A stretch of DNA of 64,000 nt, taken from the IMG/VR virus record IMGVR_UViG_3300046820_000635; one strand, 5' to 3'. This DNA comes from a virus (Duplodnaviria > Heunggongvirae > Uroviricota > Caudoviricetes). The position numbers and the translations under genes are program-made. The notes beneath the pieces were generated by a model. The model had not been told where the DNA came from and did no database searches. It saw only the letters and a program-made list of their open reading frames with translations. Below, one piece after another: positions 8,718 through 29,213 of this stretch (positions within the stretch are counted from its first letter, which is position 1; each line of letters starts with the position of its first letter).

Positions 8718-8722
8718 TAGAC

Positions 8723-8751: not shown

Positions 8752-8784
8752 AGTCCTATAGTTTAACAAGTTTGGAGGTTTCTT

Positions 8785-10326: not shown

Positions 10327-10347
10327 CCAATTTGAATACCAAAACAC

Positions 10348-10376: not shown

Positions 10377-10410
10377 TTTAATACTGAAAACACACACAGA
10401 AAGGTCAGTT

Positions 10411-10548: not shown

Positions 10549-10571
10549 TCTTAACTCACAGAAAGACACAC

Positions 10572-11726: not shown

Positions 11727-11730
11727 ATAT

Positions 11731-13041: not shown

Positions 13042-13439
13042 CCGAAAAGATTCTTCTAGTAACTAGTCCAGATGATGTTCAGCAACAAGGGCTAAGAATA
13101 CTTTTTGTAGATCTTAGTGACGATCAAACCCAACTAATATCGCAATCTCTCAATCTCATTGAAGATTTTCCTACAATCATTTCATACATATGGAAAGTTG
13201 GAGAAGATGTCGATTGGTTGATTGATAAAAAATATAAAGCCGATTTAATAATATTCAACGCAGAAAGTATTAATCAAACTGTTGTCGGTTATATGGCCGG
13301 TCAGTATAACGCATATTATTTTGGTAACTTAAAATCGTTATCAGCAGTAAACACATCTGCATTATATTCCCTAGAAGAATGTAAACAGTTGCTCGACAAA
13401 TATATAGAAAAGAAAACTTCTTTTAAACTTACACATTAA
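13038..13439 (+). CDS. hypothetical protein
   Basis: 133 aa, ATGA-coupled. Confidence 0.4.
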   Translation: MTEKILLVTSPDDVQQQGLRILFVDLSDDQTQLISQSLNLIEDFPTIISYIWKVGEDVDWLIDKKYKADLIIFNAESINQTVVGYMAGQYNAYYFGNLKSLSAVNTSALYSLEECKQLLDKYIEKKTSFKLTH

Positions 13440-13497
13440 TCTTGCATTTTTATAAAAGAAGATGCTAAACTAATATTTTAAGAAAGACTATACAACA

Positions 13498-14079
13498 ATG
13501 CTAACTGATATTATGATCGACATGGAGACACTCGATGTACTCCCTACTGCAACTATTCTTACTATTGGAGCAGTAAAGTTTGACCCGTTTGGCGATGATG
13601 TAAAAGATCCAAAATGTGAAAAGTTTTATGTTCGTGTAGATGTTGATAGTTGCGATGCTATTGGTTGTACTGTAAGTCCTGCTACTTTAGAATGGTGGAG
13701 TAAACAAGATCAAGCAGCACAAGACGAAGCATTTGATCCTGCAAATCGTATCAAGATTGAAGATGCTATGGCACAGCTTTATAAGTTTTGCTGGGGAGCA
13801 AAACGAGTATGGAGTCACGGTGCAGGATTTGATGTTATTATCTGCGAACACTTATTTAGAAAGCTGGGCCGAGCAGTTCCTTGGAGCTTCTGGGAGGTAC
13901 GTGATACTCGTACACTATTTGATATCGGTATTAATCCTAACCGCCCTCCTGTTTTAAAGCATCATGCTTTAGAAGATGCGTGGAATCAAGCAGTAGGTGT
14001 CCAGAACGTTTACAAAGCGCTACGATCTTCTACAATGCTTGACGGAACTTATATTAGTCCTCTGGCATCTCAGAGATAA
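13498..14079 (+). CDS. DEDDh 3'-5' exonuclease (DnaQ-like)
   Basis: MIDMETLD (Exo I), SHGAGFDV (Exo II), HHALEDA (Exo III). Confidence 0.7.
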   Translation: MLTDIMIDMETLDVLPTATILTIGAVKFDPFGDDVKDPKCEKFYVRVDVDSCDAIGCTVSPATLEWWSKQDQAAQDEAFDPANRIKIEDAMAQLYKFCWGAKRVWSHGAGFDVIICEHLFRKLGRAVPWSFWEVRDTRTLFDIGINPNRPPVLKHHALEDAWNQAVGVQNVYKALRSSTMLDGTYISPLASQR

Positions 14080-14133
14080 ATATTTTTTGTTAGCACCTGA
14101 TGGGCTAACATCGGGCATAATGCCCAAATTAGA

Positions 14134-14150
14134 TCTTACTTTATAAGGAG
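14134..14150 (+). promoter_or_regulatory. Conserved 18-nt element TCTTACTTTATAAGGAGA upstream of dnaK
   Basis: Identical copy sits upstream of the hsp20 gene at 16073-16090. Confidence 0.4.
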
Positions 14151-14157
14151 ATAGACA

Positions 14158-16041
14158 ATGTCTAAGATCATCGGTATTGACCTCGGCACCACCAATTCAT
14201 GCGTGGCTGTTATCGAGAATGGAACTTCCAAAGTTATTGAAAATGCAGAAGGTGCAAGAACAACACCTAGTATCGTCGCCTATGCAAATGACGAAATCCT
14301 AGTTGGTGCATCAGCAAAGCGTCAAGCAGTTACAAATCCCAAAAATACAATCTATGCAGCCAAGCGTTTAATCGGACGTAAGTTTAAAGAACAGGCTGTA
14401 CAAAAAGATCTCGGTCTAATGCCATATGAAATCTACGAAGCAGGCAACGGTGATGCATGGGTTCGTGCTCAAGGCAAAGAACTAGCACCACCACAGATTA
14501 GCGCAGAAGTCTTGCGCAAAATGAAAAAAACAGCAGAGGATTATCTAGGTGAAGAAGTTACTCAAGCGGTTATCACAGTTCCCGCATATTTTAATGACAG
14601 CCAAAGACAGGCTACAAAGGACGCTGGAAAGATCGCAGGCTTGGAAGTACTCCGTATTATTAACGAGCCTACTGCGGCAGCTCTTAGTTATGGCGTTGAT
14701 AAAACTGACAAAGCTGATCGCAAGATTGCTGTTTACGACCTTGGTGGCGGTACATTCGACGTATCAATCATTGAAATCGCGAATGTTGACGGTGACAAAC
14801 AAATCGAAGTACTAAGTACTAACGGCGACACTTTCTTGGGTGGCGAAGACTTTGATCAGCGTATTATGGATTTTCTGGTTGATACATTCAAACAGGAACA
14901 GGGCATTGATCTAACTAAAGATATGCTGGCCCTACAGCGGTTAAAAGAAGCCGCTGAAAAGGCTAAGATTGAGCTGTCTAGTTCTGCACAAACAGACGTT
15001 AACTTGCCCTACATTACAGCAGATGCAACAGGTCCTAAGCACATGAATGTCAAGTTGACTCGTGCTAAACTAGAAAGTCTTGTTGACGAACTAATCCAAC
15101 GTAGTATTGCACCATGTAAAACTGCTATGCAAGATGCTGGCGTAACCGCTAGCGATATTGACGAAGTTATTCTTGTTGGCGGTATGACACGTATGCCAAA
15201 GGTACAAGAAGCTGTTGAGAAGTTGTTTGGTAAGGCTCCTCGAAAGGATGTCAATCCGGACGAAGCAGTTGCTGTCGGCGCTGCTATTCAAGGTGCTGTG
15301 CTAGGTGGTGATCGTAAAGACGTTCTATTGCTAGACGTTACTCCATTGAGCCTAGGTATCGAAACACTAGGCGGTGTAATGAGCAAGTTGATTCAAAAGA
15401 ATACGACTATTCCGACTAAGTCTAGTCAAACATTCTCAACAGCTGAAGACAATCAACCTGCCGTAACTATCAAGGCCTACCAAGGTGAACGTGAACTATG
15501 CCAACACAACAAACTGTTAGGAGAGTTTAATCTCGAAGGTATTGCACCAGCTCGTCGTGGACAACCGCAGATCGAAGTTACCTTTGATATCGATGCTAAT
15601 GGTATCATGCATATCTCTGCCAAAGACAAGAGTACAGGTAAAGAAAATAAAATCACTATCAAGTCTAACAGCGGATTGAGTGACGATGAAGTTCAACGTA
15701 TGATTCGAGAAGCAGAAGAAAATGCCGAAGCCGATAAAAAGGCACGTACTCTTATTGAGACACGAAATCAAGCAGAAGCTATGGTGCATGAACTCAAGAA
15801 AGATACAGAAGATCTAAAAGACGAGCTTACTGACACACAACGTAGCGATGCCGAAGCTGCTATCCAAGCAGTGGCAGACGCAGGCAATGACGTAGATGCT
15901 ATCAAATCAGCAATCGAGAAACTGACTACAGTAGCGGTTTCTTTTGCACAGAAAAAACAGCTTAAAGAATCTGGTACAACACCGGACCAAGCTGCACAGG
16001 ATGATGTAGTTGATGCTACTTTTACTGAGAGCAAAAACTAA
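14158..16041 (+). CDS. dnaK: Hsp70 chaperone (DnaK-like)
   Basis: [26 protein letters not shown], complete 627 aa. AAGGAG RBS. Confidence 0.9.
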
Positions 16042-16072
16042 TCATAAAGAGTACCGTAATGGACTCTATTGA

Positions 16073-16090
16073 TTCTTACTTTATAAGGAG
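16073..16090 (+). promoter_or_regulatory. Conserved 18-nt element TCTTACTTTATAAGGAGA upstream of hsp20
   Basis: Identical to the element at 14134-14150 upstream of dnaK. Confidence 0.4.
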
Positions 16091-16096
16091 AAACAT

Positions 16097-16528
16097 ATGA
16101 ATCAACTAGCAAGAATAGACGCTTTAAACAGAGCATTGATTGGATTCGACACCATGTTCGATCAAATGGAACGCCGTTTCGCAAACAGCGTATCAAATAA
16201 CTATCCACCTCATAATATCATCAAGGTCGGAGAAAATAACTACAAGATTCAGTTGGCAGTAACAGGATTTAACAAATCCGAAGTTAGCGTAACTGTAGAA
16301 AACAATGTGCTGATTGTCAAGGGCGAAAGTATGACAACAGAGTGGCCTTCCGAAGCTTACCTCTATCGTGGTCTTGCTACCCGCGATTTTGTCAAAGAGT
16401 TTCCTCTTGCCGAACATATCGAAGTAGTTGGAGCACAAATCGAAAACGGCCTTTTGATCATTAGTTTGATTCGCAACATTCCAGAATCTGCGAAGCCTAA
16501 AGTGATTGACATCGTCGAGATTAAGTAA
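16097..16528 (+). CDS. Small heat shock protein (Hsp20/alpha-crystallin, IbpA-like)
   Basis: NYKIQLAVTGFNKSEVSVTVENNVLIVKGE alpha-crystallin domain. 143 aa. Confidence 0.8.
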   Translation: MNQLARIDALNRALIGFDTMFDQMERRFANSVSNNYPPHNIIKVGENNYKIQLAVTGFNKSEVSVTVENNVLIVKGESMTTEWPSEAYLYRGLATRDFVKEFPLAEHIEVVGAQIENGLLIISLIRNIPESAKPKVIDIVEIK

Positions 16529-16577
16529 TATAATAAAGGGGAAGGAAACTTCCCCTGTAACATAACCCGGAGAAAAC

Positions 16578-16880
16578 ATGGCCGTAGACACACAAATTGA
16601 CGAGAAGGTATCGATCAAAGTAGAACCACCAAAGATGTGGAAAGTAGTATTTTTAAACGATGACCATACTCCGATGGAATTTGTAATCGAACTGCTGGTA
16701 AGTATCTTTAGACATACTGAAAGCAAAGCTAAAGATCTTACTTTAGAAATTCATAATTCTGGTAGTGCAGTCGCGGGCATTTACAGTCACGAGATTGCAG
16801 AACAACGTGGGATGGAAGCAACACATCTCTCAAGAGCAAATGGATTCCCACTTCAGGTCCAACTAGAACAAGATTCCTAA
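16578..16880 (+). CDS. clpS: ClpS-like ATP-dependent Clp protease adaptor
   Basis: PKMWKVVFLNDDHTPMEFVIELLVSIFRHTESKA matches the ClpS core (YKVILLNDDYTPMEFV...). Confidence 0.8.
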   Translation: MAVDTQIDEKVSIKVEPPKMWKVVFLNDDHTPMEFVIELLVSIFRHTESKAKDLTLEIHNSGSAVAGIYSHEIAEQRGMEATHLSRANGFPLQVQLEQDS

Positions 16881-16881
16881 C

Positions 16882-17148
16882 ATGATTCATGGCGAGGACT
16901 TTAAATTTTTAAAGTATAAAAATGTAGGCACTCGCCAATTTTCTTACTGGCTAACATTTCTTGATACAAGACCTAGCAATAGGCGATATGGTAAACGATC
17001 AAGAAAAGAATTAATAAACTTTTGGTCTTATAGTTTGGGCAAACTAGGAGATCGTTGGGAATATAGCGCACCCGGTAATGGAGAGTTTATTATCAAAATC
17101 CATCAAGAAAGTGATATCACAATAATGCTCTTGAAGTATCACAGATAG
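16882..17148 (+). CDS. hypothetical protein
   Basis: 88 aa ORF. Confidence 0.35.
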   Translation: MIHGEDFKFLKYKNVGTRQFSYWLTFLDTRPSNRRYGKRSRKELINFWSYSLGKLGDRWEYSAPGNGEFIIKIHQESDITIMLLKYHR

Positions 17149-17162
17149 TAAATAATCACACT

Positions 17163-17708
17163 ATGAGTCTAAAAGATATTACCAAAGACCTCCACCATGA
17201 GGCAGAAACAACAAAGTTCGCTAAGATGCTGCTTAGTGGCAAGATTGGCAAAGAAGACTACAGAAACTATCTGTATAACTTAATGGCAGTATACGATCCA
17301 ATCGAATGGTACTGTCAGCGTCAAGGATTCCTTGTCGCAATGCCAGACTTACCTCGTCTAAAATCAATCTATGCAGATTTCATGGAGCTAGACGACGGAT
17401 CTTACTGTTACCTAACTCCAGCAACACTTGAATACCAAGCATACTTACACAAACTAGGTAACGATGAACAACGTAAACACCTTGTTAAAGCGCATCTATA
17501 TTGCCGCCATATGGGCGACTTATTCGGTGGCCAAATCATTAAGAAGCAGGTAGCACATATTTCAAGCGGTAAGTTCTACGACTTTGAAAATGCTGATGCT
17601 ATGAAGATGGCTATTCGCGTAACGCTTACCGACGACTTAGGTGACGAAGCTCGTGTAGCATTTGAATACGCTATTAAGATGATGCGAGATTTGTATAATG
17701 GAGAGTAA
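17163..17708 (+). CDS. Heme oxygenase (HO-1 family)
   Basis: LKDITKDLHHEAETTKF...YRNYLYNLMAVYDPIEW and AHLYCRHMGDLFGGQIIKK match the proximal-His and GDLSGGQ helix motifs of heme oxygenase. Confidence 0.7.
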   Translation: MSLKDITKDLHHEAETTKFAKMLLSGKIGKEDYRNYLYNLMAVYDPIEWYCQRQGFLVAMPDLPRLKSIYADFMELDDGSYCYLTPATLEYQAYLHKLGNDEQRKHLVKAHLYCRHMGDLFGGQIIKKQVAHISSGKFYDFENADAMKMAIRVTLTDDLGDEARVAFEYAIKMMRDLYNGE

Positions 17709-18381
17709 AGTTTGGGACTCACTGATTGCTGTACAACAGTACTTTGAAGAGTCATTTAATAATACAGGAAAGGAAGTCTATGAGACGGGTATGGATCGCT
17801 TTAACAGCCCTGGTTGGGTTAACCGTGTTTGGACCAGTGGGTCTTATCGTCGTGCTCACGTTGATGTTGTGGATGCTAGGAAAACAAAAGGACTGTGGAT
17901 GATGCACTGCTGTGTGTTTCCTCATACACACAATCCGGCACCAATCTTTGGTTTTGATGTTATTGCAGGCAAGAATAAAATCACAGGTTGTTTTTATGAC
18001 TACAGCCCTGCAGGCGATCCCGAACACCCTATGCTTGACTGGTTCGCAGACGAAGCACAACAACTAGAATGGGTTAAGACACGCAAGTTACCCGAGTGGG
18101 CTGAACGTATCTTTAGTACCAGTATGGTAGCTGCTGCTAATGTTAGTGACGAGACCGAACTTGCACAGATTGTAGACATGGCCTATCGTGGAATCGATAC
18201 TTACCTGCAATCAGTAGGCAATACCAACAATACAGCACATGACACAACAGACGCACAAAACTTCTATTGCGAAAATCAAAAGATGAATCCGCATACACCA
18301 AAAGTTATGGTCAGTCTTGGACTTAGCGAAGAAGACGTAAAGGTCTTTATTCAGGATTGTCTGTTTCCTGAAATCAAATAA
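17698..18381 (+). CDS. Ferredoxin-dependent bilin reductase (PebS/PcyA/PcyX family)
   Basis: RRAHVDVVDARKTKGLWMMHCCVFPHTHNPAPIFGFDVIAG matches the FDBR core (R.AH.D......L...H.V.FP......P.FG.D...). Overlaps and follows the heme oxygenase gene. Confidence 0.7.
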   Translation: MESKVWDSLIAVQQYFEESFNNTGKEVYETGMDRFNSPGWVNRVWTSGSYRRAHVDVVDARKTKGLWMMHCCVFPHTHNPAPIFGFDVIAGKNKITGCFYDYSPAGDPEHPMLDWFADEAQQLEWVKTRKLPEWAERIFSTSMVAAANVSDETELAQIVDMAYRGIDTYLQSVGNTNNTAHDTTDAQNFYCENQKMNPHTPKVMVSLGLSEEDVKVFIQDCLFPEIK

Positions 18382-18389
18382 ATACTTGC

Positions 18390-18671
18390 ATGAGAGCAAG
18401 TGATTTTGATAGAATAAAGAAAGACAAGTTTAAACCTAAACTGGTCGCAAGATGGTGGGGTGGTTACAACGGTAACAGTATCCCGCCTGATGTAAAGCCT
18501 CTATTTCAAAAACACGTTAAAACAGCCGCTAACGGCAAACAATACATTAATCAATATGACGATCGTTGGTATTATAGTGTATTCAAAAACTACCCACATA
18601 TTACAGACTGGGACAGTTTCTTTGACGTAATCAAACCCTACTTTACCGTACAAAGAAAACAAGATATTTAA
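18390..18671 (+). CDS. hypothetical protein
   Basis: 93 aa ORF. Confidence 0.35.
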   Translation: MRASDFDRIKKDKFKPKLVARWWGGYNGNSIPPDVKPLFQKHVKTAANGKQYINQYDDRWYYSVFKNYPHITDWDSFFDVIKPYFTVQRKQDI

Positions 18672-18755
18672 GGTTTTCTTGCTCTAGATTAAACTCAGCG
18701 TTTAATTGCTGCCCCCGTGTATCTAAATACTATACCGATTACCGGGAGCGAATCA

Positions 18756-19247
18756 ATGAAAAGAACAATAGTAGGATTGGGGATTACTCTGGCCGTATAC
18801 ACGACATACGCAGCAGAAATCCAACATAGCTTTAATAGTCCGTCATTTAGTGGTGTAGGATATAGCAGCCATGTTCTTACACTTAAACAACTAGAAGATC
18901 AGCAGAAAGATAAAAACAAAGCTGCGATCGACGCATTAAAAGCTGCTGCTGAAAGAGAAGCAGCAAATACTCCACAGGCTAGATTTAAAGCCAGCATGGA
19001 AACAAGAGTCTACAGCGAGTTAGCTAAACGTATTAGCGATAGCCTATTCGGTAGCACAACTACAGCACCTACCTGCAATGGCGGTGGATCTAGTTCTTCT
19101 AGCAGCCCTTGCGCTGCTATTGAGTTAGTAGGACAAAACATTTCTTGGTGGATTACAGGATCTAACATTATTGTTAGAATTCAGGATGCTAATGATCCTA
19201 ACACATACACAGAAATGACCATGCCATATGCGGCATTTAGCATCTAA
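18756..19247 (+). CDS. CsgF-like curli assembly component (secreted)
   Basis: Signal peptide MKRTIVGLGITLAVYTTYA. Mature N-terminus EIQHSFNSPSFSGVGYSSHVLTLKQ parallels CsgF [29 protein letters not shown]. GGGAG RBS. Confidence 0.6.
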   Translation: MKRTIVGLGITLAVYTTYAAEIQHSFNSPSFSGVGYSSHVLTLKQLEDQQKDKNKAAIDALKAAAEREAANTPQARFKASMETRVYSELAKRISDSLFGSTTTAPTCNGGGSSSSSSPCAAIELVGQNISWWITGSNIIVRIQDANDPNTYTEMTMPYAAFSI

Positions 19248-19258
19248 GGATTAGAAAC

Positions 19259-20215
19259 ATGACAAAAACAATTATATCCTTAGCAATCATTGCATTATTG
19301 AGCGGATGTGCAACAAGTTCAGCTATACATGAAAAAGTCACAGGCAAACAATTTGATGAGCCAGTAGTTGAACAGAGTACATACTTAAAGAAAGATACAA
19401 ACAAGTTAAAGCCGCCAGCAACTGGTCCCATTCCTATTGCCGTATACGGATTTCAGGACAAGACTGGACAACGTAAGAGCATTCCGAACATTGCTAGTTT
19501 GAGTTCGGCAGTAACACAAGGTGCAGACAGCTATTTGATTAAAGCATTACAAGATGTAGGTGACCAGCGTTGGTTTACTGTTCTTGAAAGAGTTGGTTTA
19601 GAAAACCTAATCAAAGAGCGTCAAATGATTCGACAGATGCGTGAGCAGTATCAAGGTAAGGATGCAAAGCCTTTACCTCCTATGATGTTTGCTGGCGTAA
19701 TAGTTGAAGGTGGTATTATAGGCTATGATTCAAATACTCTAACTGGTGGTAGCGGAGTTAGATTTTTAGGAGTCGGAGCAACTACACAATACCAAAGCGA
19801 TACTGTAACTGTTAATCTACGCACAGTTAGCGTAAGCACAGGAGAAGTATTAACCAGTGTTACTATCACAAAAACTGTGTTAAGTTACATGGACAAGTTC
19901 GGAGTTCTGAAGTTTGTTGAGCAAGGTACACAAAGTATCGAAGCAGAAACAGGCGGCAGTATCAACGAAAGTATCAACAAAGCTGTGAATCTAGCAGTTC
20001 AAGCAGCCGTTGTTGGTACTATACATGAAGGTGCAAGGAAAGGGCATTGGAACTTTAAGGAGGAGAAAAAAGATGAGTTGGTTCAATCACAAACCTCGCC
20101 GCAAAGAGCCGCCGAAACTGTACCCTCACAACCACAGCCCAGCGACAAAGAAAGCGCTGGATCAGGCAAAGCAGTTGAGTCCGACAAAACAAACGGACAA
20201 AAAGAAGTAAAATAA
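19259..20215 (+). CDS. CsgG-like outer-membrane lipoprotein secretion channel
   Basis: Lipobox LLSGCATSS. IAVYGFQDKTGQ...RWFTVLERVGLENLIKERQMIRQ...AGVIVEGGIIGYDSNTLTGGSGVRFLGVGATTQYQSDTVTVNLRTVSVSTGEVLTSV aligns along the whole E. coli CsgG sequence. Confidence 0.85.
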   Translation: MTKTIISLAIIALLSGCATSSAIHEKVTGKQFDEPVVEQSTYLKKDTNKLKPPATGPIPIAVYGFQDKTGQRKSIPNIASLSSAVTQGADSYLIKALQDVGDQRWFTVLERVGLENLIKERQMIRQMREQYQGKDAKPLPPMMFAGVIVEGGIIGYDSNTLTGGSGVRFLGVGATTQYQSDTVTVNLRTVSVSTGEVLTSVTITKTVLSYMDKFGVLKFVEQGTQSIEAETGGSINESINKAVNLAVQAAVVGTIHEGARKGHWNFKEEKKDELVQSQTSPQRAAETVPSQPQPSDKESAGSGKAVESDKTNGQKEVK

Positions 20216-20228
20216 CAGGGAGCTCACT

Positions 20229-21065
20229 GTGTTACAAGCCGCAGTGAAAATAAAAATGAAATTAGGACAAACAAATACAATTAAAAATATAGTCCTGGTA
20301 ACGGCATTGGCAATGGCTAGCATCACAAATGCTCAGTCAACAGTTGCTACAGGCCCAAACAAGGTCTATATCGAACAAGTCGGTAATAGCAATACAGTTA
20401 CCATTCAGCAAGTTGGCGGAACTAACGACGTTGGCGGAACAGCCGTTACAGCATCATCAGTTGCAGCCAATGGAGTAACCACATTAACTCCAACAGCACC
20501 TAGTTCTTCGAACTATGCTACTATCACAGGTAGTTCGAATACTGTTACTCTAAATCAAACAGGTAACGGCAACAGTGCGCAGTACAATATTCAAGGTAAC
20601 GACAATGTCTATACCAGCAACGTTACAGGACACGGTAATCAAACTAGGTTAACTGTGGGCGATGTTAACAATGCTAGTAATCTACGTAATGTTATTACAG
20701 AAACAATCGTTGGCGACACAAACTTGATTATACAAGATATTGTTGGTAGTGATATTACCAGTATTACAGGTATTACAGGCAACTCAAACCAAGTTACAAA
20801 AAGTTTGTTAAGCTCAAACGGTACTAGCGACATTAGTATTTCTGGTAATAGTAACGTTCTAAACATTCAGCAAACAGACGCTGCTGGTGCAAACGGGCAT
20901 TATCTAAAACAAGTTATAGCAGGTGACTACAACAGCATCACTACTCAACAGCAAGGTACTAATGATACCACTGTTGATATCCGTGCTACAGGTAGCCACA
21001 ATACTATTACTGTAAGAACTAGTAGTTCAGCTATCGTTAATCCTGCAACAGCAATCGTGAGGTAA
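20229..21065 (+). CDS. Curlin-repeat secreted protein (CsgA/CsgB-like amyloid subunit candidate)
   Basis: Signal peptide, then degenerate repeats of the S-x5-Q-x-G-x-G-N-x-A-x3-Q type: NSNTVTIQQVGGTNDVGG, SSNTVTLNQTGNGNSAQYNIQG, GHGNQTRLTVGDVNNASNLRNVI and others. Confidence 0.6.
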   Translation: MLQAAVKIKMKLGQTNTIKNIVLVTALAMASITNAQSTVATGPNKVYIEQVGNSNTVTIQQVGGTNDVGGTAVTASSVAANGVTTLTPTAPSSSNYATITGSSNTVTLNQTGNGNSAQYNIQGNDNVYTSNVTGHGNQTRLTVGDVNNASNLRNVITETIVGDTNLIIQDIVGSDITSITGITGNSNQVTKSLLSSNGTSDISISGNSNVLNIQQTDAAGANGHYLKQVIAGDYNSITTQQQGTNDTTVDIRATGSHNTITVRTSSSAIVNPATAIVR

Positions 21066-21068
21066 GAC

Positions 21069-22172
21069 ATGCGAGTCCTTTTGTTAGCTCTACTGCTAAC
21101 ATTTTCTGTGGCTTCAAATGCCAATGGCAATATTGGCAAAGTCACAGAAAATAAAGGAAATGCCTGTGAAGTTGAAAGGAACAAGAAGAAGATGTCCGGC
21201 ATTAAAGGTGCCGACATTGAATCTTTGGATACCTATATAACACAGGCATGCGTAAGCACCTTGACATTTACCGATGATACCAAAGTCAAAGTTACAGAAA
21301 ACAGCCGTCTGCTTATTGACGATTTTGTTTTCGATCCTAAGAAAAGCGATGCAGGCAAGCTCGCTCTCAAAGTGGGTATGGGAACCGTTAGATACGCTAG
21401 CGGGCAGATTGCTAAGAACAATCCACAACAAGTCGCAATAAAAACCCCTTCGGCAACTATCGCAGTTCGCGGTACTGATTTCTCTATGACTGTGGACGAA
21501 GCAGGACAGAGTCTTGTGGTCCTACTGCCCAGCTGCAAAGAAGAAAAAGACATGAAGCAGTATGAGCTGGAAGAGAATCGCTGTAAAGTTGGTAAGATTG
21601 AAGTTAGTACAGATGCGGGTAAGGTAGTGTTGGATCAAGCATTTCATGCTACCTATGTTACCAGTACAAACATAATGCCGACTCCGGCTACAGTTATCAA
21701 CACCATCGAGGCCAAAATCAACAACAACCTAATATTGGTTAAGCCTATGGAAGTATCTACTGCTATCCGTGAACATGCCAAGACTAAGCAGGATCGAGAA
21801 CTAGAGGAAATCGAAGCAGAAGCTTCACGCAGACTTGCCGCAAGAGTTAAAGAAGCAGCAGAAGAAATAGAAAGAGCTAGACTGTTGGCACTAGCAGTTG
21901 CCTTGGGTACGGCTAGCTGTAATGCCAGTACCAGTATCTGTGTAAACTGGGAAAACACCGATGCCAGCACTATTCAAACCAAAGGCAAAGGCACTGCTTT
22001 TCGTACCAACGAGGATCACTATGCTGAAGTTAAGACACAGGGCTATAGTTCAAATACAAGCATTACAATAATACACAACGATGCATCGGCAACAGAAGTT
22101 ATCGGTGACGGAAGCGCAGGCGGAAATATGATTTATATCAAACAGAATGCAGGAGTGCTAAGAAGAAGATGA
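21069..22172 (+). CDS. Secreted FecR-domain protein with C-terminal coiled coil
   Basis: Signal peptide MRVLLLALLLTFSVASNA. IAIKTPSATIAVRGTDFSMTV matches the FecR beta-motif. Confidence 0.5.
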   Translation: MRVLLLALLLTFSVASNANGNIGKVTENKGNACEVERNKKKMSGIKGADIESLDTYITQACVSTLTFTDDTKVKVTENSRLLIDDFVFDPKKSDAGKLALKVGMGTVRYASGQIAKNNPQQVAIKTPSATIAVRGTDFSMTVDEAGQSLVVLLPSCKEEKDMKQYELEENRCKVGKIEVSTDAGKVVLDQAFHATYVTSTNIMPTPATVINTIEAKINNNLILVKPMEVSTAIREHAKTKQDRELEEIEAEASRRLAARVKEAAEEIERARLLALAVALGTASCNASTSICVNWENTDASTIQTKGKGTAFRTNEDHYAEVKTQGYSSNTSITIIHNDASATEVIGDGSAGGNMIYIKQNAGVLRRR

Positions 22173-24064
22173 TGACACGCATATTACAGTTCTTGGCATT
22201 GTTGGTACTTTCTGTCAGTGCGCAGAGTCAAACATATTACAATGCTATTGCTACTGCCTATGTTACAACAACTATCAGTCAGCATGTTGTATTTGATGCA
22301 AATATGCAAGCAGGTGGAACATTTACCTTTAGTGTATTAGCACACAATGGCGGTGGACGTGCCGGGCAAAGCGACACAGCCAACGTAAAGATAGAATTCT
22401 ACAACAGTAGTGGCGGATTAGTGTCGCAGGTAAACACATCGCACTCTGCTAACTTACCAAACCCTAACGCTGTGTGTGGTAATCCTTGTATCGATACAAG
22501 CGTTCCTTGGACAACACTGACTGTTAGTAAAACACTATCTGCGGCGGAAGCTGGAACAGTGGCCTATGCCCGAGTTAGTATGTATGGTATTGATGGAAGC
22601 TATTGGGCAGGTGATTACGGTCCGTGGTATCGTGCTCCTACTCTGCAACTTAACAGTGGTGGCAACTTATTGTATAACCCAGAGTTTGGTCCTTACAACA
22701 ACATAACAGCACAGGGTTGGACCAGTAATCCAGGGTTCGGTGCTTGTCAAGGTGCATGGGGTGGTAGTAATGCCTGTATCGTTAACAGCGATGGTGTACC
22801 TGGTTCTAGTACAGTTGGTTTAGTTGCTAACCAGAATGGTGGAGGCCCTAGTGCAACAGGTGGTACAACTAGCGGTACTGCTGGCGGATATAATAACACT
22901 ATGACAGTAACCAACGCAGGTACCGGTGCAACAGCTGGTGGTCCTCCCCCACCAGCCCCAACAGTTATTACCGGGTCATCACCGACAGTTTATATAACAA
23001 ACTACTATCCCACAAGTAATAACAGTCCTGTAAGTGAAGGAGCATCCAATGCTTTTGATGGTAATCCGAATACCAAATATCTAAACTTCGATAAACTAAA
23101 TGCAGGTGTAACTATTAAATTAAATTCGGGTCGAGTAGTTACAGGATTTAAACTTACTACAGCTAACGATTTTAGTGGGAGAGATCCTACTAGTTATAAA
23201 CTCTACGGAAGTAATAACGGAAGTACCTGGACTCTGATTCAGGAAGGTGCATTATCACTTAGCGAAAATCGACTTACAGTTAGTTCTGAGATTACTGTAA
23301 CTAATACTAATGCCTATGTTTACTATTATATTTTCTTTCCAACTACAAAAGCAGGTACAGGTTGTGGATTAGATTGTGATAGTATGCAGATTGCCGAAAT
23401 CACATACATCTATGATGCTAATAATACAACAACATCTACAGCTACAGGTTCATCAGTTTCTAACCCAGGAAGTTTATGCTGCGGAGGAAATGCTTCTTCG
23501 TTTAATGCTAATACTTCTAACTCTGCAAAAGTTTTATTATTCACTAATAGAACAACAGCAGATAGTCAAGTTTATATTGAACAAATCGGTATTGGTAATA
23601 ATATAGAAGTATTTCAATCCGGCACTAGACAAAACTATGCAAAATATTACGGCAATGGATCAAACAATGATGTAACTATTATACAGACAGGAAATGCCTC
23701 TACTTCTGTGAACTATACAGATTTGTCAATAACAGGCAATTCAAATAATGTTAATGTTACACAACAAAGCAGCGGAGGCGGCAAAGGAGCGTTTGTTACT
23801 ATATCTAATAACTCGAATATTGTTAATGTTACGCAAAAAGATTCTGGAAGCCATTATTTAGATCTAGCACTATCCGGTGGAAATAAAACTGTAGGTGTAC
23901 TACAACAGGGATCCGCTAGTCATATGGCTACTATTAATCTAAGTGGAAATCCTACCAGTTTAAATCTAACTCAAAGCGGAAGTACACAAAACTTTTATTC
24001 TATTACTCACAACTGTGCAACAGCAGGTGGGTGTGCTCCTATTACAGTGACACAAGGCAACTAA
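22169..24064 (+). CDS. Large secreted protein: N-terminal beta-rich domain, Gly/Thr/Pro linker, F5/8-type-C (discoidin-like) domain, C-terminal curlin-like repeats
   Basis: Signal peptide. NAFDGNPNTKYLNFDK...TGFKLTTANDFSGRDPTSYKLYGSNNGSTW discoidin-like. C-terminal repeats SQVYIEQIGIGNNIEVFQSG, SNNDVTIIQTGNAS, NSNNVNVTQQSSGGGKGA, NKTVGVLQQGSASHMA. Confidence 0.55.
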   Translation: MMTRILQFLALLVLSVSAQSQTYYNAIATAYVTTTISQHVVFDANMQAGGTFTFSVLAHNGGGRAGQSDTANVKIEFYNSSGGLVSQVNTSHSANLPNPNAVCGNPCIDTSVPWTTLTVSKTLSAAEAGTVAYARVSMYGIDGSYWAGDYGPWYRAPTLQLNSGGNLLYNPEFGPYNNITAQGWTSNPGFGACQGAWGGSNACIVNSDGVPGSSTVGLVANQNGGGPSATGGTTSGTAGGYNNTMTVTNAGTGATAGGPPPPAPTVITGSSPTVYITNYYPTSNNSPVSEGASNAFDGNPNTKYLNFDKLNAGVTIKLNSGRVVTGFKLTTANDFSGRDPTSYKLYGSNNGSTWTLIQEGALSLSENRLTVSSEITVTNTNAYVYYYIFFPTTKAGTGCGLDCDSMQIAEITYIYDANNTTTSTATGSSVSNPGSLCCGGNASSFNANTSNSAKVLLFTNRTTADSQVYIEQIGIGNNIEVFQSGTRQNYAKYYGNGSNNDVTIIQTGNASTSVNYTDLSITGNSNNVNVTQQSSGGGKGAFVTISNNSNIVNVTQKDSGSHYLDLALSGGNKTVGVLQQGSASHMATINLSGNPTSLNLTQSGSTQNFYSITHNCATAGGCAPITVTQGN

Positions 24065-24080
24065 TACAGCAAATAAATAG

Positions 24081-26135
24081 TTGATGCAAATCAAACTAAA
24101 ATCTTTGCTGTTAAGCCCGTGGACAGCAGTAATCACACTGGCACTAGTACTAGGTATCCGCGTTAGCGATCCAGCGTTTGTAGAAAGCGTTAGACTACGT
24201 TATTTTGACACACTAATCACTGCTAAAGAACCTACACAAAATAATATTGTTACGGTTAACATTGACGAAGAATCTTTAGATAAACTAGGACAATGGCCTT
24301 TACCGAGGGCAGAGTATGCTAAAATTATTAAAGACTTGTATGATAGGGGCGCTGGCCTTGTTGTTCTCAACGTGCTTATGGCTGAGCCTGATCGCACTGG
24401 TGGTGACTCAGCTCTTGCCCAGGCTCTTTCTCAATATCCAGTAGTTCTAGGTAGTGTACCTAGCGACAAAACAAAAAACATTCCACGCAATCCGGGCAGT
24501 GCTGTTCTGGGACCAGAGTTTCTTGATCAAATCATAACCTATCCCGGAATCATTGCCAATATACCTCCTCTAGAAAAATCAGCAGCAGGGATTGGTATTG
24601 TAAATACTCTACCAGAAGTTGATGGTGTAAATCGCCGATTACCTTTGATTGCCGGTGTTGACGGCAAACTATACCCAAGCATAGCTATGGAGACACTGCG
24701 AGTAGCAGCAGGCGATTCAACCTTTCAAGTAAAGCTCAACGAGAATGGCGTTGAGAAAATGCGTATTCCAAAGTTTGGCCCTATTACTACGGACAACTTT
24801 GGACGCATCTGGGTCGATTGGAGCCAGGAGAATCAAAGTGTAAGTCTAACTAACTTGCCCAAAGATCTCGCTGGCGCTATCGTTATTGTTGGACCTACCG
24901 CAGCAGGGGTGAGCAATCCAGTACCGACTGCTAAGGGTGCAGTATGGCCGCATGATGTTCAAGCCGCAGTTATTGGTACAATGGTCAATGGCGTTGTTAT
25001 ACAGAGGCCTGACTATGCAGACGGTCTAGAAATACTTGCTATTGCATTAGCAGGATTAATTTTATTATTTTTAACAAGGTGGACTTATGTTGGATTGGGT
25101 GCAACTATTGTTATTGCTGTGGGCGGCTACGTTGCTAGTAGCTACGCTTTCAGTAACTTTCTATTCTTATTTGATACTACTGCCTTTACAGCTGGCACAG
25201 TCTTGGTCGCTTTGCATGCCTATGGTGTCAAGTTTGTAAGTGAGTTTTTACAGAAGCAGGCAATCAAGAAACAGTTTGCTGGCTACTGCTCAAAAGAAGT
25301 AGTAGAGATGCTACAGAAAGATCCAGACTTAATCAAGCGTGGTGTGCGTAAAGACGTGTCAGTTATGTTTAGTGACTTGCGTGGATTTACTCCTATTGGT
25401 GAACATTACGGTGATGATGTAGGCGGACTAGGCAAGTACATGAACGGCTACATGGATGCTATTAGTCGTCCTATTATGGACAACAAGGGTATGGTTATCA
25501 AGTATGTAGGTGATGCGTCAATGCACATCCATGGAGCTCCTATTGAAGATCCTAACCACGCTAGAACTATTGTTGCTGTTGGCCTACAGATGTTAGATGC
25601 TGTTGATGCCTATACAAAAGAAATGGAAGCACAAGGATTACCACCAGCCGCAATGGGTTGGGGTTGTAACACAGGTATTGGCTTCATTGGCGAGATGGGT
25701 TCAACTGATAGGCACAGCTATGACATCTTAGGCGACATGGTTTCAACTGCGGCTCGCTTAGAAGCACGTTGCAAGGCTTATGGCGTACTATGTATTATTG
25801 GTGCTGAAACATACAACCGCACTAAAGATGATTTCTTCTACTTGTGTATCGATAACTTACAACCCAAGGGCAAGTCAGTAGCAGACTTAATATATACAGC
25901 ACTACGCCCCAACGGTGAGGACTGGAGTAAAGACCTAGTTAAGTACAACGAAATGCAAGCCCTGTACAAGGCTAAGAAGTTTGACGAAGCTGCTGCTATG
26001 TGCTCTAAGATGAAAGGTACATTCGGTGGACAAATGGACAAGTATTATAAGATTTGGATTGAACGTTGTGACTTCATGAAACAGCAAGATCTAGGCCCAG
26101 ATTGGCAGGGAGAGTTTATAGCGAATGAAAAATAA
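24081..26135 (+). CDS. CHASE2 sensor domain - multi-TM - class III adenylate/guanylate cyclase
   Basis: N-terminal TM plus an extracytoplasmic CHASE2-like region, about 4 TM helices, then VSVMFSDLRGFTPIGEHY...GDASMHIHGAP (cyclase metal-binding Asp and transition-state residues). Confidence 0.75.
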   Translation: MMQIKLKSLLLSPWTAVITLALVLGIRVSDPAFVESVRLRYFDTLITAKEPTQNNIVTVNIDEESLDKLGQWPLPRAEYAKIIKDLYDRGAGLVVLNVLMAEPDRTGGDSALAQALSQYPVVLGSVPSDKTKNIPRNPGSAVLGPEFLDQIITYPGIIANIPPLEKSAAGIGIVNTLPEVDGVNRRLPLIAGVDGKLYPSIAMETLRVAAGDSTFQVKLNENGVEKMRIPKFGPITTDNFGRIWVDWSQENQSVSLTNLPKDLAGAIVIVGPTAAGVSNPVPTAKGAVWPHDVQAAVIGTMVNGVVIQRPDYADGLEILAIALAGLILLFLTRWTYVGLGATIVIAVGGYVASSYAFSNFLFLFDTTAFTAGTVLVALHAYGVKFVSEFLQKQAIKKQFAGYCSKEVVEMLQKDPDLIKRGVRKDVSVMFSDLRGFTPIGEHYGDDVGGLGKYMNGYMDAISRPIMDNKGMVIKYVGDASMHIHGAPIEDPNHARTIVAVGLQMLDAVDAYTKEMEAQGLPPAAMGWGCNTGIGFIGEMGSTDRHSYDILGDMVSTAARLEARCKAYGVLCIIGAETYNRTKDDFFYLCIDNLQPKGKSVADLIYTALRPNGEDWSKDLVKYNEMQALYKAKKFDEAAAMCSKMKGTFGGQMDKYYKIWIERCDFMKQQDLGPDWQGEFIANEK

Positions 26136-26298
26136 TTTCTACACTCCACTAGACTGGTGGGTTGAATATTCTGTATGGATAATGCTACAGTACAAGTTTA
26201 TGTTGCCGGCAATGATGATTGCTCGTAACAATGAAACAGAACAGTTTATCAAACAGTTTACACTTAACGGTATTAAGATTCCTACTATTTGCAGGCCA

Positions 26299-26327
26299 TA
26301 AAAAAAGCACCCTATGGGTGCTTTTTA
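26299..26327. terminator. Bidirectional rho-independent terminator
   Basis: AAAAAAAGCACCC-tat-GGGTGCTTTTT between convergent gene blocks. Confidence 0.75.
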
Positions 26328-26654
26328 ACTACTTCCACTTTTGGCTTCTTTATCATCGTCGCCAACTTTATTAATTTCTTTTTCAGCTTCAACACGCTCG
26401 TATTCAATAGTCTTGCCACGCAGGTGTAAGACTGTGTTGACCTTTTGATTTAAACGAATCAAATCGTTATCTAGCATACGGATACGATCAATAAGTGCAA
26501 TCAAAACGGTATTGGCATCACTGATAACTGGTTTAACTTCTTTAGTAGCCCATTCCCAAACGTATTTGATAATGAAGCCCATTCCAACTGCCATGACAAT
26601 TGGAAAACCATACTTATTGACTAACTCAACTACATCCATTCTCGTCTCCAACAT
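26325..26654 (-). CDS. Small membrane protein, paralog A
   Basis: N-terminal TM. ALIDRIRMLDNDLIRLNQKVNTVLHLRG parallels the motif in the 26835..27116 ORF. Confidence 0.5.
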   Translation of the reverse strand: MLETRMDVVELVNKYGFPIVMAVGMGFIIKYVWEWATKEVKPVISDANTVLIALIDRIRMLDNDLIRLNQKVNTVLHLRGKTIEYERVEAEKEINKVGDDDKEAKSGSS

Positions 26655-26838
26655 TTACTGTGTATCCTCTTACGAATGCTTCTAACGGATCCACTTTAAC
26701 TAACATTTGGCGCCCATTCACATTGGTAAATCTAAATAGATCACCGTGTTTGTATCCTAGCTTATCTGTGTTAAGTTCTTCATCTAAAAGAATTCTATTA
26801 GGATTTAGATCCCAGGAGTAATCGAAATGTAGCATCAA
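26626..26838 (-). CDS. hypothetical protein
   Basis: 70 aa ORF between the two paralogs on the minus strand. Confidence 0.35.
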   Translation of the reverse strand: MMLHFDYSWDLNPNRILLDEELNTDKLGYKHGDLFRFTNVNGRQMLVKVDPLEAFVRGYTVNVGDENGCS

Positions 26839-27116
26839 TCTCTCCTAGCATCATTCTTACCGTCTGCTCGAGCAATACGGTCAACGTCCGGACGGAGTCC
26901 TAATGCATTGGATACAATAGTGTCGATGCGGACAACATCGTGATTCATGGTCTTTACACGATTGTCCAAGGCTGTAATAATACCAGCCATACCTTTAATA
27001 CTGCCCAAAACTCCCTGTAACAACAGTTTGATCGTGAGATACACAAAGTATCCGCCGGCTAAGGCTGCTGCTACTGGCATACCTAAATCGCCAATAATCT
27101 TGAAAATATCGCCCAT
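26835..27116 (-). CDS. Small membrane protein, paralog B
   Basis: Two TM segments then ALDNRVKTMNHDVVRIDTIVSNALGLRP. Confidence 0.5.
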   Translation of the reverse strand: MGDIFKIIGDLGMPVAAALAGGYFVYLTIKLLLQGVLGSIKGMAGIITALDNRVKTMNHDVVRIDTIVSNALGLRPDVDRIARADGKNDARRD

Positions 27117-27153
27117 CGTTTCGCTCCCGGGTTATGTACTACTATTTAACCAT

Positions 27154-27182
27154 TTGACAAACTTTTAAACTGGTGCTATAAT
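27154..27182 (+). promoter_or_regulatory. Consensus extended -10 promoter TTGACA-N17-TGcTATAAT
   Basis: The 19-mer GGTGCTATAATATACACAT is repeated verbatim at 40738-40756. Confidence 0.65.
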
Positions 27183-27209
27183 ATACACATATATTATCTA
27201 GAGGCCTTT

Positions 27210-28025
27210 ATGAAGATTAAGTTAGTATCAGATCTACACTTAGAGTTCAGCGATTACAACGTTAAAAACGATGACGGGTGTGATGTGTTAATTCTCAGTG
27301 GCGATATCATGGTTGCTGAAAAGGTTCTAAAACCCGAAAGTGAGTATGGTATTAGATTCCGAGACTTTTTAAAACGTGTAAGTTTCCAGTTTCCTCATGT
27401 TATCTATGTGGCAGGTAATCATGAGTTTTACGGAGGATATTGGGTCAAAAGTCTTAACGAGCTGCGTATGGCCTGTGGTGTGCATGACAATGTCTACTTC
27501 CTAGAACGTGAAATCAAGAAGATCGACGATGTGACTTTTATCGGGGGTACACTATGGACCGACATGAACAAGTTCGATCCTATTACACTACATGCCGTTC
27601 GTGATATGATGAACGATTACCGAAGTATCCGTAACGATCAGGCAGGCTATACAAACTTAAAACCTGCAGATACGTGCCAACGACACAAACTAACGCTTGA
27701 CTATATTAAGAGTGTGGTAGCAGAACGCCCAGACGAAAAGTTTGTTGTTGTTGGACATCATAGCCCTAGCTTCCAAAGTGTACACGAACAGTATAAAGGC
27801 GAGTTCTTAATGAACGGTGCTTATCACAGCAGCCTTGAAGAGTTTATTATAGATCGTCCACAGATTAAACTTTGGACACACGGTCACACTCATCACCCAT
27901 TTGATTATCAAATTGGGGAAACTCGTATAGTATGCAATCCCCGTGGCTACGAGTCGATTAGGGGTAACGGATCTTTCTGGGGTGAAGATACTGGTTGGAA
28001 TCCTAACATAGTATTAGAAGTATGA
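27210..28025 (+). CDS. Calcineurin-like metallophosphoesterase
   Basis: VSDLHLE, GDIM, GNHEF, GHHS motifs. Confidence 0.7.
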   Translation: MKIKLVSDLHLEFSDYNVKNDDGCDVLILSGDIMVAEKVLKPESEYGIRFRDFLKRVSFQFPHVIYVAGNHEFYGGYWVKSLNELRMACGVHDNVYFLEREIKKIDDVTFIGGTLWTDMNKFDPITLHAVRDMMNDYRSIRNDQAGYTNLKPADTCQRHKLTLDYIKSVVAERPDEKFVVVGHHSPSFQSVHEQYKGEFLMNGAYHSSLEEFIIDRPQIKLWTHGHTHHPFDYQIGETRIVCNPRGYESIRGNGSFWGEDTGWNPNIVLEV

Positions 28026-28504
28026 AAAAAATCTTTTATGAAAAAGTCGGTCGTAGGTATACTCCAGTCAGCGAGTACGACAGTGATTTTCTAGATAGTT
28101 TTCGCAAGGGTACCCATCTTATAATGTGTTACCCGGGCGGAAGCAGTCGCCGTTTTGACATTGATCCCAACTATGCGGCTATGATTGCCGCTGGTCGAGT
28201 TGCAGAAGATGCTATCTCTAAGAAGATCATGGATGTTACAGAGATTCGTAGACAACAAAAGAATCGTAATACTCCTCTGACTCCTAGTCAGAAGGCTGCT
28301 TGGGAAAAACTTGTAGAAGAGTTTGGTCCTGATGCTAAACAATTAGAATGGCCAAGTGCTAGAGAAGCCGCAGAAGAGGCTGTTAAAGCTATGCAGGCAG
28401 AAGCAGATAAACTTATGCAACACGAAAGTGTACGTAAGGCCTATGATCATTTTCAACTAATGTGTAAACTGGTAAAACAAAATGAACTGGAACAATCCTT
28501 TTAA
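28022..28504 (+). CDS. hypothetical protein
   Basis: 160 aa, ATGA-coupled. Confidence 0.4.
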   Translation: MKKIFYEKVGRRYTPVSEYDSDFLDSFRKGTHLIMCYPGGSSRRFDIDPNYAAMIAAGRVAEDAISKKIMDVTEIRRQQKNRNTPLTPSQKAAWEKLVEEFGPDAKQLEWPSAREAAEEAVKAMQAEADKLMQHESVRKAYDHFQLMCKLVKQNELEQSF

Positions 28505-28721
28505 AACCGTTGCAATCAAAACTATCAAGCCCAGTGATAAGATGTTCAAGATCAACACTGGATTTATGACTGCTGATCGAGCCAGCATTGAGATTGATCG
28601 AGCCTGTCCTTCGAAGTACGCCGATATTATTGCACAGTGCTATAGTAATGGTTGGATCAAACCTGTAGCACACGTTACAGAAAAAGAATACATGCTAATG
28701 GGATTATCAAACAATGGGTAA
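28482..28721 (+). CDS. hypothetical protein
   Basis: 79 aa ORF. Confidence 0.3.
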   Translation: MNWNNPFKTVAIKTIKPSDKMFKINTGFMTADRASIEIDRACPSKYADIIAQCYSNGWIKPVAHVTEKEYMLMGLSNNG

Positions 28722-28953
28722 CCAAACAGACTACTTTAATCGCATTGGTTACAAGCCAAAGTATTTTATCGGTGATCGAATTATAGGCAAGTGGAATAAG
28801 ATTCCTTTTGTAGGCACTGTAGGCAATGATCGAAAAATTAACGACACCGACGGTCCGGAAATCACAGTTCATCTCGATTTGCCTATCAAGTTTCAGGGCA
28901 AAGTTTATAACTTCATCATTGTTAAGCACAAGGACGTATCGGCGTATAAATGA
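28714..28953 (+). CDS. hypothetical protein
   Basis: 79 aa ORF. Confidence 0.3.
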   Translation: MGNQTDYFNRIGYKPKYFIGDRIIGKWNKIPFVGTVGNDRKINDTDGPEITVHLDLPIKFQGKVYNFIIVKHKDVSAYK

Positions 28954-29213
28954 ACATCTATAATAAAAATACCACATGGGAAACAATCGTAAGAGATATC
29001 GAGGATTTCCAGAACCGTCGACCAAAAGTTAACATACCTGAAGAGACTAGTAATATTACCTGTGTTGCGGGAGATGTTGAAATGTTGAAAGTATCAAAAG
29101 ATGGATTTTATGTGCGTGGCGTAAAAGTTCCCGCAGATGATAAAGAAGCAGAGACTGTTTATAATGCCTTCAAGAGTTTTTTAATGTGGGCTGAACTTAA
29201 CAAGAGGCAATAA
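28950..29213 (+). CDS. hypothetical protein
   Basis: 87 aa ORF, ATGA-coupled. Confidence 0.35.
   Translation: MNIYNKNTTWETIVRDIEDFQNRRPKVNIPEETSNITCVAGDVEMLKVSKDGFYVRGVKVPADDKEAETVYNAFKSFLMWAELNKRQ

Follow-up and report, generated by a model that had tools for sequence, protein, structure and literature searches.

The IMG/VR virus record IMGVR_UViG_3300046820_000635 (Caudoviricetes) includes a 64,000-nucleotide (nt) stretch, called the window here, in which a complete six-gene curli-type (type VIII secretion) cassette is set in a phage-type genome. All six genes lie on the + strand and are numbered in cassette order: csgF, csgG, curlin 1, FecR, curlin 2, and CHASE2-cyclase. Gene 1 (18756-19247) encodes a CsgF-like secreted protein of 163 amino acids (aa). 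Its open reading frame (ORF) opens at a GTG at 18717, and the ATG start at 18756 is consistent with the M-K-K/R starts of its orthologues. Gene 2 (19259-20215) encodes a CsgG-like outer-membrane lipoprotein channel subunit of 318 aa, assigned from Pfam and PDB matches; gene 3 (20229-21065), a curlin-repeat protein of 278 aa with a signal peptide, recognized through its family profile; and gene 4 (21069-22172), a secreted FecR-domain protein of 367 aa, also with a signal peptide. Gene 5 (22169-24064) encodes a second curlin-repeat protein, a fusion of 631 aa in which an N-terminal beta-sandwich (residues 33-161; 22265-22651) and a CBM32 or F5/8 type C (discoidin) domain (residues 264-430; 22958-23458) precede a predicted C-terminal curlin-repeat beta-solenoid (residues 465-630; 23561-24058). 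Gene 6 (24081-26135) encodes a CHASE2 membrane sensor joined to a class III nucleotidyl cyclase, 684 aa in all.

The gaps between consecutive genes of the cassette are 11, 13, 3, -4, and 16 nt, an operon-like arrangement in which the only true overlap is that of 4 nt between the FecR stop and the start of gene 5. Signal peptides could be read from the translations of all five soluble products, and GC content shows no step at either junction of the cassette, staying at about 0.40-0.45. The original prediction, made from the sequence alone, had described five consecutive, translationally coupled genes forming a curli-like secretion locus. The five ORFs are all present on the + strand at the positions given above, and the curli-type structural reading is correct, but the sixth conserved gene, encoding the CHASE2-cyclase, had been overlooked. 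Coupling is borne out as tight spacing, with real overlap confined to the FecR and gene 5 pair, and the word giant, applied to gene 5, overstates a protein of 631 aa. Among the Pfam models named for a check at that time, CsgF, CsgG, FecR, and F5_F8_type_C all matched above their cut-offs, while Curlin_rpt, at 19.0 bits, fell just under.

The gene 2 product matches Pfam CsgG with 175.4 bits over profile positions 3-208 of 210, and Escherichia coli CsgG chains in the PDB with E=5e-51 over residues 7-269, in agreement with the predicted similarity along the whole protein. The lipobox in the translation is L-S-G-C. Searched by tblastn against phage records, the protein is 43-45% identical to the CsgG of Pelagibacter phage HTVC008M and of Methylophilales phage Melnitz. 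It ends in a low-complexity tail of about 50 aa rich in K/E/Q/S/P (20080-20215). Because the length of this tail varies, the CsgG orthologue ORFs at loci L003-L082 span 265-443 aa.

The gene 1 product was expected to be a secreted CsgF-like protein, and the Pfam CsgF match of 27.2 bits (cut-off 25.8) agrees with this. After the signal peptide comes the motif F-N-S-P-S-F-S-G, and among 28 CsgF orthologues residues F26, P29, F31, G33, and G35, right behind the signal peptide, are invariant. A single-sequence search of the PDB returned chance matches only, so that a family profile was needed; its top match was E. coli CsgF, weak at E=0.2 and aligned on F-x-x-P-x-F-x-G.

In the repeat region of gene 3, units of 21-29 aa follow the pattern x-I-x-Q-x-G-x-x-N; there are about 8-9 of them, and a single linker of about 30 aa breaks the series. 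As a single sequence, the protein stays just under the Curlin_rpt cut-off of 20.7 bits with the score given above, and its PDB search likewise gave chance matches only until a family profile was used. The profile built from 33 orthologues matched a single entry among 177,635 PDB sequences, the solved curlin-repeat protein 8c50_A (E=6e-10). Curlin_rpt is matched at E<=1 by 29 of the 33 orthologues, and invariant G/N/Q columns recur every 22 residues or so across the family. The curlin repeats predicted for gene 3 are therefore significant at the family level.

The curlin module of gene 5, taken alone, scores 15.1 bits with Curlin_rpt, again under the Pfam cut-off. A profile of the last 190 aa matched 8c50_A (E=5.5e-23) and E. 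coli CsgA (8enq_A; E=0.0045) in the PDB and nothing more, and 31 of 33 family members match Curlin_rpt at E<=1. An AlphaFold2 (AF2) model, calculated from an alignment of 59 sequences, folds residues 465-630 into a regular solenoid of 14 strands arranged in seven strand-turn-strand units, with a predicted local distance difference test score (pLDDT) of about 90. The window protein ends in C-x5-C ... T-V-T-Q-G-N, and the family C-terminus reads N-C-A-T-A-G-G-C-x-x-I-T-V-x-Q-G-Q. The 8c50 chain A protein is the only strong PDB relative of both phage repeat modules and shares with them the x-I-x-Q-x-G-x-x-N logic. The phage modules are shorter, with 7-9 units, and gene 5 adds to them the conserved C-x5-C end and the non-curlin domains on its N-terminal side.

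Those N-terminal domains were then compared across orthologues. The beta-sandwich of residues 33-161 (pLDDT about 70-90 in the AF2 model) belongs to no Pfam family and was found in 10 of 48 distinct orthologues. A disordered Gly/Pro-rich linker (residues 188-260) separates it from residues 264-430, which match Pfam F5_F8_type_C (40.3 bits) and PDB entry 7nsn_A (E=1.5e-15) and form a confident domain in the AF2 model; the top Foldseek matches of this domain are CBM32 modules, with target-normalized TM-scores of 0.66-0.78. On the strength of these matches and the model, residues 264-430 are predicted to adopt a CBM32/discoidin fold and are putatively carbohydrate-binding. The proposed joining of a discoidin-like domain to C-terminal curlin repeats in one protein was thus upheld. 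A protein 100% identical to gene 5 is also present on a contig from the Joint Genome Institute (JGI).

Gene 5 is modular, with a constant curlin anchor and exchangeable heads. The C-terminal curlin module is constant in all 48 distinct orthologues, and the head is of several kinds: the N-terminal domain with discoidin, which is the window arrangement (6 of 48), discoidin only (11), the N-terminal domain only (4), other sequences in proteins of 306-471 aa (21), or none at all, leaving the curlin module alone at 140-187 aa (6). The exchange can be seen directly in contig L022, which comes from another sample and is collinear with window positions 10044-29834 at 88-94% identity. The sole break in the alignment, at 22938-23460, coincides with the CBM32 domain, and in its place L022 carries about 900 nt of unrelated sequence. 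In HTVC008M the corresponding protein, gp018, has a PA14 domain preceding its Curlin_rpt repeats where the window has the beta-sandwich and CBM32, and the Melnitz gene 5 protein is short. Two other loci have an extra ORF between gene 5 and the cyclase gene, of 959 aa in L020 (14495-17374; no Pfam match) and of 473 aa in L029 (13578-14999; SBBP beta-propeller repeats), and both extra ORFs show weak similarity to the curlin-repeat protein.

The predicted secreted FecR-domain protein was confirmed by a Pfam FecR match of 37.6 bits and a signal peptide on the gene 4 product. Aligned with gp017 of HTVC008M and gp102 of Melnitz, it is 37% identical, with many invariant columns, and its homologues in a metagenome protein collection number more than 3600. 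AF2 modeled the FecR beta domain (residues 23-200) with a pLDDT of about 80; it is followed by a long helix (227-278) and a C-terminal beta region of low confidence. Two motifs near the C-terminus, HYAEVKTQG...ITIIH and GGNMIYIKQ, aligned to curlin units in hhalign with P=0.004 and 0.012 and with probabilities of 8% and 3.6%, which weakly supports a FecR protein ending in curlin-like strands.

Gene 6 matches Pfam CHASE2 with 144 bits and Guanylate_cyc with 53 bits, and the same position in the cassette is filled in HTVC008M (gp019), Melnitz (gp104), and most IMG/VR loci. The cyclase keeps both metal-binding Asp motifs (FSDLRGFT and KYVGDASM), and these, the Lys/Thr specificity pair, and the Arg align with Pseudomonas aeruginosa CyaB (3r5g). 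The catalytic Asn is replaced by Ser (GDMVSTAARLE; cyclase region 25281-26135). Ser occupies this position in 19 of 30 distinct phage cyclases, Melnitz included, and Asn in the other 11, among them HTVC008M, which divides the phage enzymes into two cyclase subfamilies at one cassette position. As the canonical catalytic Asn is missing from the window enzyme, the synthesis of cyclic AMP is an assumption.

The FecR protein and the CHASE2 sensor form a gene pair that already existed in bacteria. We scanned 185,579 species-representative genomes with two peptide patterns from the FecR protein, a scan whose sensitivity is limited accordingly, and the closest genuinely bacterial relatives were FecR(-OmpA) genes directly upstream of CHASE2-HD genes in two Acidobacteria (L088 and L089). 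A periplasmic LysM-FecR protein adjoins a CHASE2 histidine kinase in the BiofilmReg operon of Burkholderia (PMC5192318). The phage resembles these bacterial pairs in encoding a signal-peptide FecR protein together with a CHASE2 sensor, but a class III cyclase takes the place of the histidine kinase or HD domain as output, its FecR protein has a long helix and C-terminal beta region in place of LysM or OmpA, and the curlin-repeat gene 5 sits between the partners. Because such pairs exist in bacteria, an envelope-sensor reading of the phage FecR protein is better supported than an iron-regulator reading, which gives way to it.

The bacterial precedent and the conservation of both the FecR and the cyclase genes in the phage cassette favor an explanation centered on signaling, in which the nucleotide made by the CHASE2 cyclase would reprogram the host (e.g. 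via CRP) and the FecR and repeat proteins would act as sensor antenna or ligand. The curlin-like motifs at the FecR C-terminus, with their low P values, point the same way, but their hhalign probabilities are very low and the AF2 model has little confidence in that region. Some podophage cassettes lack the cyclase (PMC9599517), and the window lineage has the Asn to Ser change. A full secretion channel and two fiber subunits would be neither needed nor explained if signaling were the purpose of the cassette, and we consider this explanation quite unlikely.

The original prediction knew of no phage with a curli system. This claim of novelty fails, since the same six genes are already annotated in HTVC008M (gp014-019) and Melnitz (gp99-104), and three papers discuss the cassette. 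The Melnitz annotation reads type VIII secretion system CsgF, CsgG, curlin-associated repeat, FecR domain, curlin-associated repeat, and adenylate/guanylate cyclase, and the HTVC008M genes follow the identical order. Zaragoza-Solas et al. in 2020 devoted a section to the curli operon and proposed sibling capture (PMC7029224). Buchholz et al. in 2022 modeled the Melnitz CsgGF complex, proposed a pinholin or secretin role, and stated that csgA/B are missing (PMC9004378). Wittmers et al. in 2022 described CsgF, CsgG, CsgA/B, FecR, a second CsgA/B, and adenylate cyclase in podo- and myo-pelagiphages, found transcripts of the marine cassette in Pacific metatranscriptomes, estimated the cassette at about 0.1% of assembled ocean viral proteins, and discussed aggregation and superinfection exclusion, roles that the original prediction also listed, as well as import (PMC9599517).

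Compared with the cassettes of pelagiphages and OM43 phages (HTVC008M, Melnitz, and HTVC023P-type podophages), the window cassette has the same six families in the same order and the same tight packing on one strand. Protein identity to the marine phage cassettes is about 30% for CsgF, 21-38% for the curlin proteins, and 43-47% for CsgG, FecR, and the cyclase. HTVC008M and Melnitz are Kyanoviridae of 141-147 kilobases (kb) with the cassette between gp32 and baseplate genes, whereas relatives of the window reach 351-369 kb and have DnaK, Hsp20, ClpS, heme oxygenase, and bilin reductase beside the cassette. The histidine kinase upstream of the podophage cassette is absent from the window, which has heme oxygenase and bilin reductase there instead. 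The genes of T4 type that adjoin the marine cassettes (gp32, gp59, the baseplate hub, and others), searched by tblastn against the window and all loci, were found on only one marine contig from a metagenome-assembled genome (MAG). With no such neighbors near the window cassette, its genomic position is therefore not shared with the marine cassettes. The window cassette is a new, diverged lineage of a known phage system, and the three marine-phage papers contain neither this lineage nor the modularity of gene 5 nor the FecR-CHASE2 pairing; the words PA14, discoidin, and lectin are absent from all three (PMC7029224, PMC9004378, PMC9599517).

Compared with the enterobacterial csgBAC/csgDEFG system, the phage cassette has a full-length CsgG homologue, the N-terminal segment of CsgF, and curlin-repeat subunits with a predicted beta-solenoid. 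It differs in being one operon-like unit without CsgE, CsgC, or CsgD and with a FecR protein and a CHASE2-cyclase added, in the fusion of one subunit to lectin-type domains, and in its constriction-loop residues. It is also phage-borne, and the hosts of its known relatives have no curli genes (PMC9599517).

Small genes coding on the + strand fill about 87% of the window. The gene content includes the ribonucleotide reductase (nrd) subunits, superoxide dismutase, a class II aldolase, a SegE-like GIY-YIG endonuclease, an Rv2179c-like exoribonuclease, DnaK, Hsp20, heme oxygenase, bilin reductase, NadM-Nudix, and NAMPT, together with 21 tRNAs and a permuted transfer-messenger RNA (tmRNA). All of the phage-type flanking genes that had been named earlier (nrd, Hsp20, tRNAs, and NadM/NAMPT) were found. 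Hardly any of ten ORFs at 44-59 kb had a match when scanned with PHROG; the exceptions were a ClpP-like protease and a membrane protein. Neither window positions 1-17000 nor the cassette had a megablast match among 50,697 phage records, and by these comparisons the lineage of the window is one without a sequenced isolate.

In IMG/VR, at least 110 viral contigs carry a CsgG 62-98% identical to that of the window, and 80 of these were analyzed. The order of the cassette is kept in nearly all of the 80 loci, about half of them have heme oxygenase and bilin reductase upstream, several have a phosphoesterase downstream, and several agree with the window on both sides of the cassette. A 351-kb metagenome contig at NCBI shows the same synteny, with S21, IMPDH, Rv2179c-like, HSP70, HSP20, ClpS, heme oxygenase, bilin reductase, a 93-aa ORF, CsgF, CsgG, repeat protein, FecR, F5_F8 protein, and CHASE2 cyclase in succession and the shared order running on past the cyclase; other carriers of the cassette reach 369 kb.

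These loci bear on whether the cassette might be host DNA or the product of a chimera in which the assembly fused it to phage sequence. The cassette genes are bacterial in type, and no virion gene (capsid, tail, or terminase) was found in the window, both of which would fit such an origin. However, the flat GC content, the collinearity of L022, the flanks shared among the IMG/VR loci, and the gene order of the 351-kb contig all speak against it. In the two-pattern FecR scan described above, the whole cassette was found in no bacterium, only on five short GTDB MAG contigs (L083-L087). All five have the cassette in its marine phage form, and their binning is inconsistent, to Rhodobacteraceae, Legionellales, Flavobacteriaceae, Pelagibacter, and Pirellulales. 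On L083 there is in addition a homologue of a pelagimyophage gene that adjoins baseplate genes in HTVC008M and Melnitz. The five are probably phage contigs mis-binned into bacterial MAGs. We therefore regard an origin as host DNA or chimera as extremely improbable, and the setting as a genuine phage-type one rather than an assembly artifact. An uncultivated large phage is the best description of the element, on indirect evidence: its IMG/VR membership, the genes it carries, and the occurrence of a homologous cassette in isolated phages.

The heme oxygenase (17163-17708) and ferredoxin-dependent bilin reductase (17698-18381) genes of the window overlap on the + strand directly upstream of the cassette. 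Farther upstream (13498-16880, +) lie the Rv2179c-like exoribonuclease, a full-length DnaK/Hsp70 of 627 aa, Hsp20, and an ORF of 100 aa that occupies the place where relatives have ClpS. On the + strand, 16506-16534 and 27154-27182 each match the sigma-70 promoter consensus perfectly (TTGACA, 17 nt, TATAAT; 12 of 12 positions), and these two promoters bracket the unit running from the ClpS-like ORF through the cassette. This arrangement suggests that host RNA polymerase may transcribe the cassette unit in its unmodified form; expression would then be early.

Taken together, the above considerations make it fairly probable that the cassette makes lectin-decorated amyloid fibers on infected cells, with cyclic-nucleotide signaling alongside. 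The five soluble products would leave through the host Sec system during infection. CsgG would insert in the outer membrane as an oligomeric channel, into which CsgF would plug through its N-terminal F-x-x-P-x-F-x-G segment. Both curlin-repeat proteins would cross the channel unfolded and polymerize outside as amyloid-like beta-solenoid fibers, with curlin-repeat protein 1 as the bulk subunit. The gene 5 protein would co-assemble through its constant curlin module and display its head (beta-sandwich and CBM32) on the flexible linker, so that the infected cell would become coated with glycan-binding fibers. The FecR protein and the CHASE2 cyclase would serve as an envelope-sensing pair that answers a signal from the periplasm or the surface by making a cyclic nucleotide. 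A role of the repeat proteins as virion components was considered and rejected because all of them have Sec signal peptides.

Several observations weigh against the fiber account. Gene 1 clears its Pfam cut-off by a thin margin. The constriction of CsgG is not conserved: opposite the E. coli constriction residues Y51, N55, and F56, gene 2 has I, S, and L and a one-residue insertion. No Pfam match to CsgE, CsgC/CsgH, or CsgD was obtained in a scan of the six cassette proteins and the adjacent 93-aa ORF. To pass a channel of about 1 nm, the 631-aa gene 5 protein, with its two folded domains, would need to be kept unfolded in the periplasm. The Ser at the catalytic position of the cyclase and the lack of virion genes in the window count on the same side. 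The literature searched contains no experimental test of any phage curli cassette, whether by Congo red, thioflavin T, or electron microscopy. CsgE, CsgC, and CsgD are likewise absent from the marine phage cassettes (PMC9599517), and OM43 cells infected with Melnitz showed no clumping in cytograms or by transmission electron microscopy (PMC9004378).

The missing CsgE gate, the altered constriction, and the unclumped Melnitz cultures would all fit a cassette whose CsgG/CsgF channel serves only as a pore, either timing lysis in the manner of a pinholin or secretin or importing larger solutes, with the repeat proteins accessory or irrelevant. A pore role has indeed been proposed for Melnitz and the pelagimyophages (PMC9004378, PMC7029224). 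However, two signal-peptide curlin proteins are kept with csgG in nearly all of more than 80 loci, with CsgG identity down to 43%, and both are significantly related to solved curlin fibers. The assumption by Buchholz et al. that csgA/B are missing is thereby contradicted, and the true presence of both curlin subunits is evidence against the pore-only idea, which would also leave the swapped lectin-type heads unexplained. We judge it rather unlikely.

For the fiber account, the ecological pay-off that we favor is adhesion of infected cells to particles or to host cells nearby, in preference to protection from other phages. The reason is that near-identical genomes differ by a swap of the gene 5 head, as would be expected of a part in contact with variable surface glycans. 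The role of gene 5 as a carrier of exchangeable lectin-type domains thus favors adhesion among the published hypotheses. A more tentative extension, which we consider possible but doubtful, is that the fibers are programmable: the constant anchor would polymerize with the major subunit, a swappable lectin-type head (CBM32, PA14, or others) would set the glycan, and the FecR/CHASE2/cyclase branch would report on the status of the fiber or envelope. If true, viruses would here be redirecting the social behavior of their hosts, both in marine pelagiphages and in the separate lineage of contigs of up to about 350 kb.

Phage curli cassettes are abundant and would supply a function that their hosts lack. 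The present results extend the range of the cassette beyond the 140-kb myophages of SAR11 and OM43 and the small podophages to a diverged lineage with contigs of up to about 350 kb. To this the modularity of the lectin-curlin fusion and the FecR-CHASE2 link add modest new points.

A number of further features were observed in the window. The chaperone set at 13498-16880 is unusual for phages, and DnaK is also found in huge phages such as Lak phages; the window DnaK has up to 73% identity to DnaK sequences in the phage collection, some of them on bacterial records. A permuted, two-piece tmRNA gene lies at 6333-6679 (+) and matches Rfam RF04321 with 91.6 bits against a gathering score of 47. Permuted tmRNA is, after the cassette, a second rare feature common to the window and the phage group of Melnitz, which likewise encodes a two-piece ssrA (PMC9004378), and the gene may hint at a host that itself has a permuted tmRNA.

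On contig L091 from JGI, which is near-identical, the equivalents of window 29213-29881 and 31610-32404 (+) have Pfam matches to Gad2 and Band_7, and these ORFs may be defense- or membrane-related accessory genes.

The tRNA at 33972-34046 (+) has the anticodon CUA of an amber suppressor; ARAGORN labeled it Pyl, and it matched the Rfam tRNA model with 62.7 bits. Among 116 approximated + strand ORFs, the stop codon was TAG in 5, TAA in 59, and TGA in 52. The CUA tRNA and the rarity of TAG may reflect read-through or recoding of TAG elsewhere in the genome. A cluster of about 20 tRNA genes occupies 59999-63524 (+); among them are one whose anticodon loop is odd (62682-62768) and a tRNA-Ile(UAU) of 92 nt at 63112-63203.

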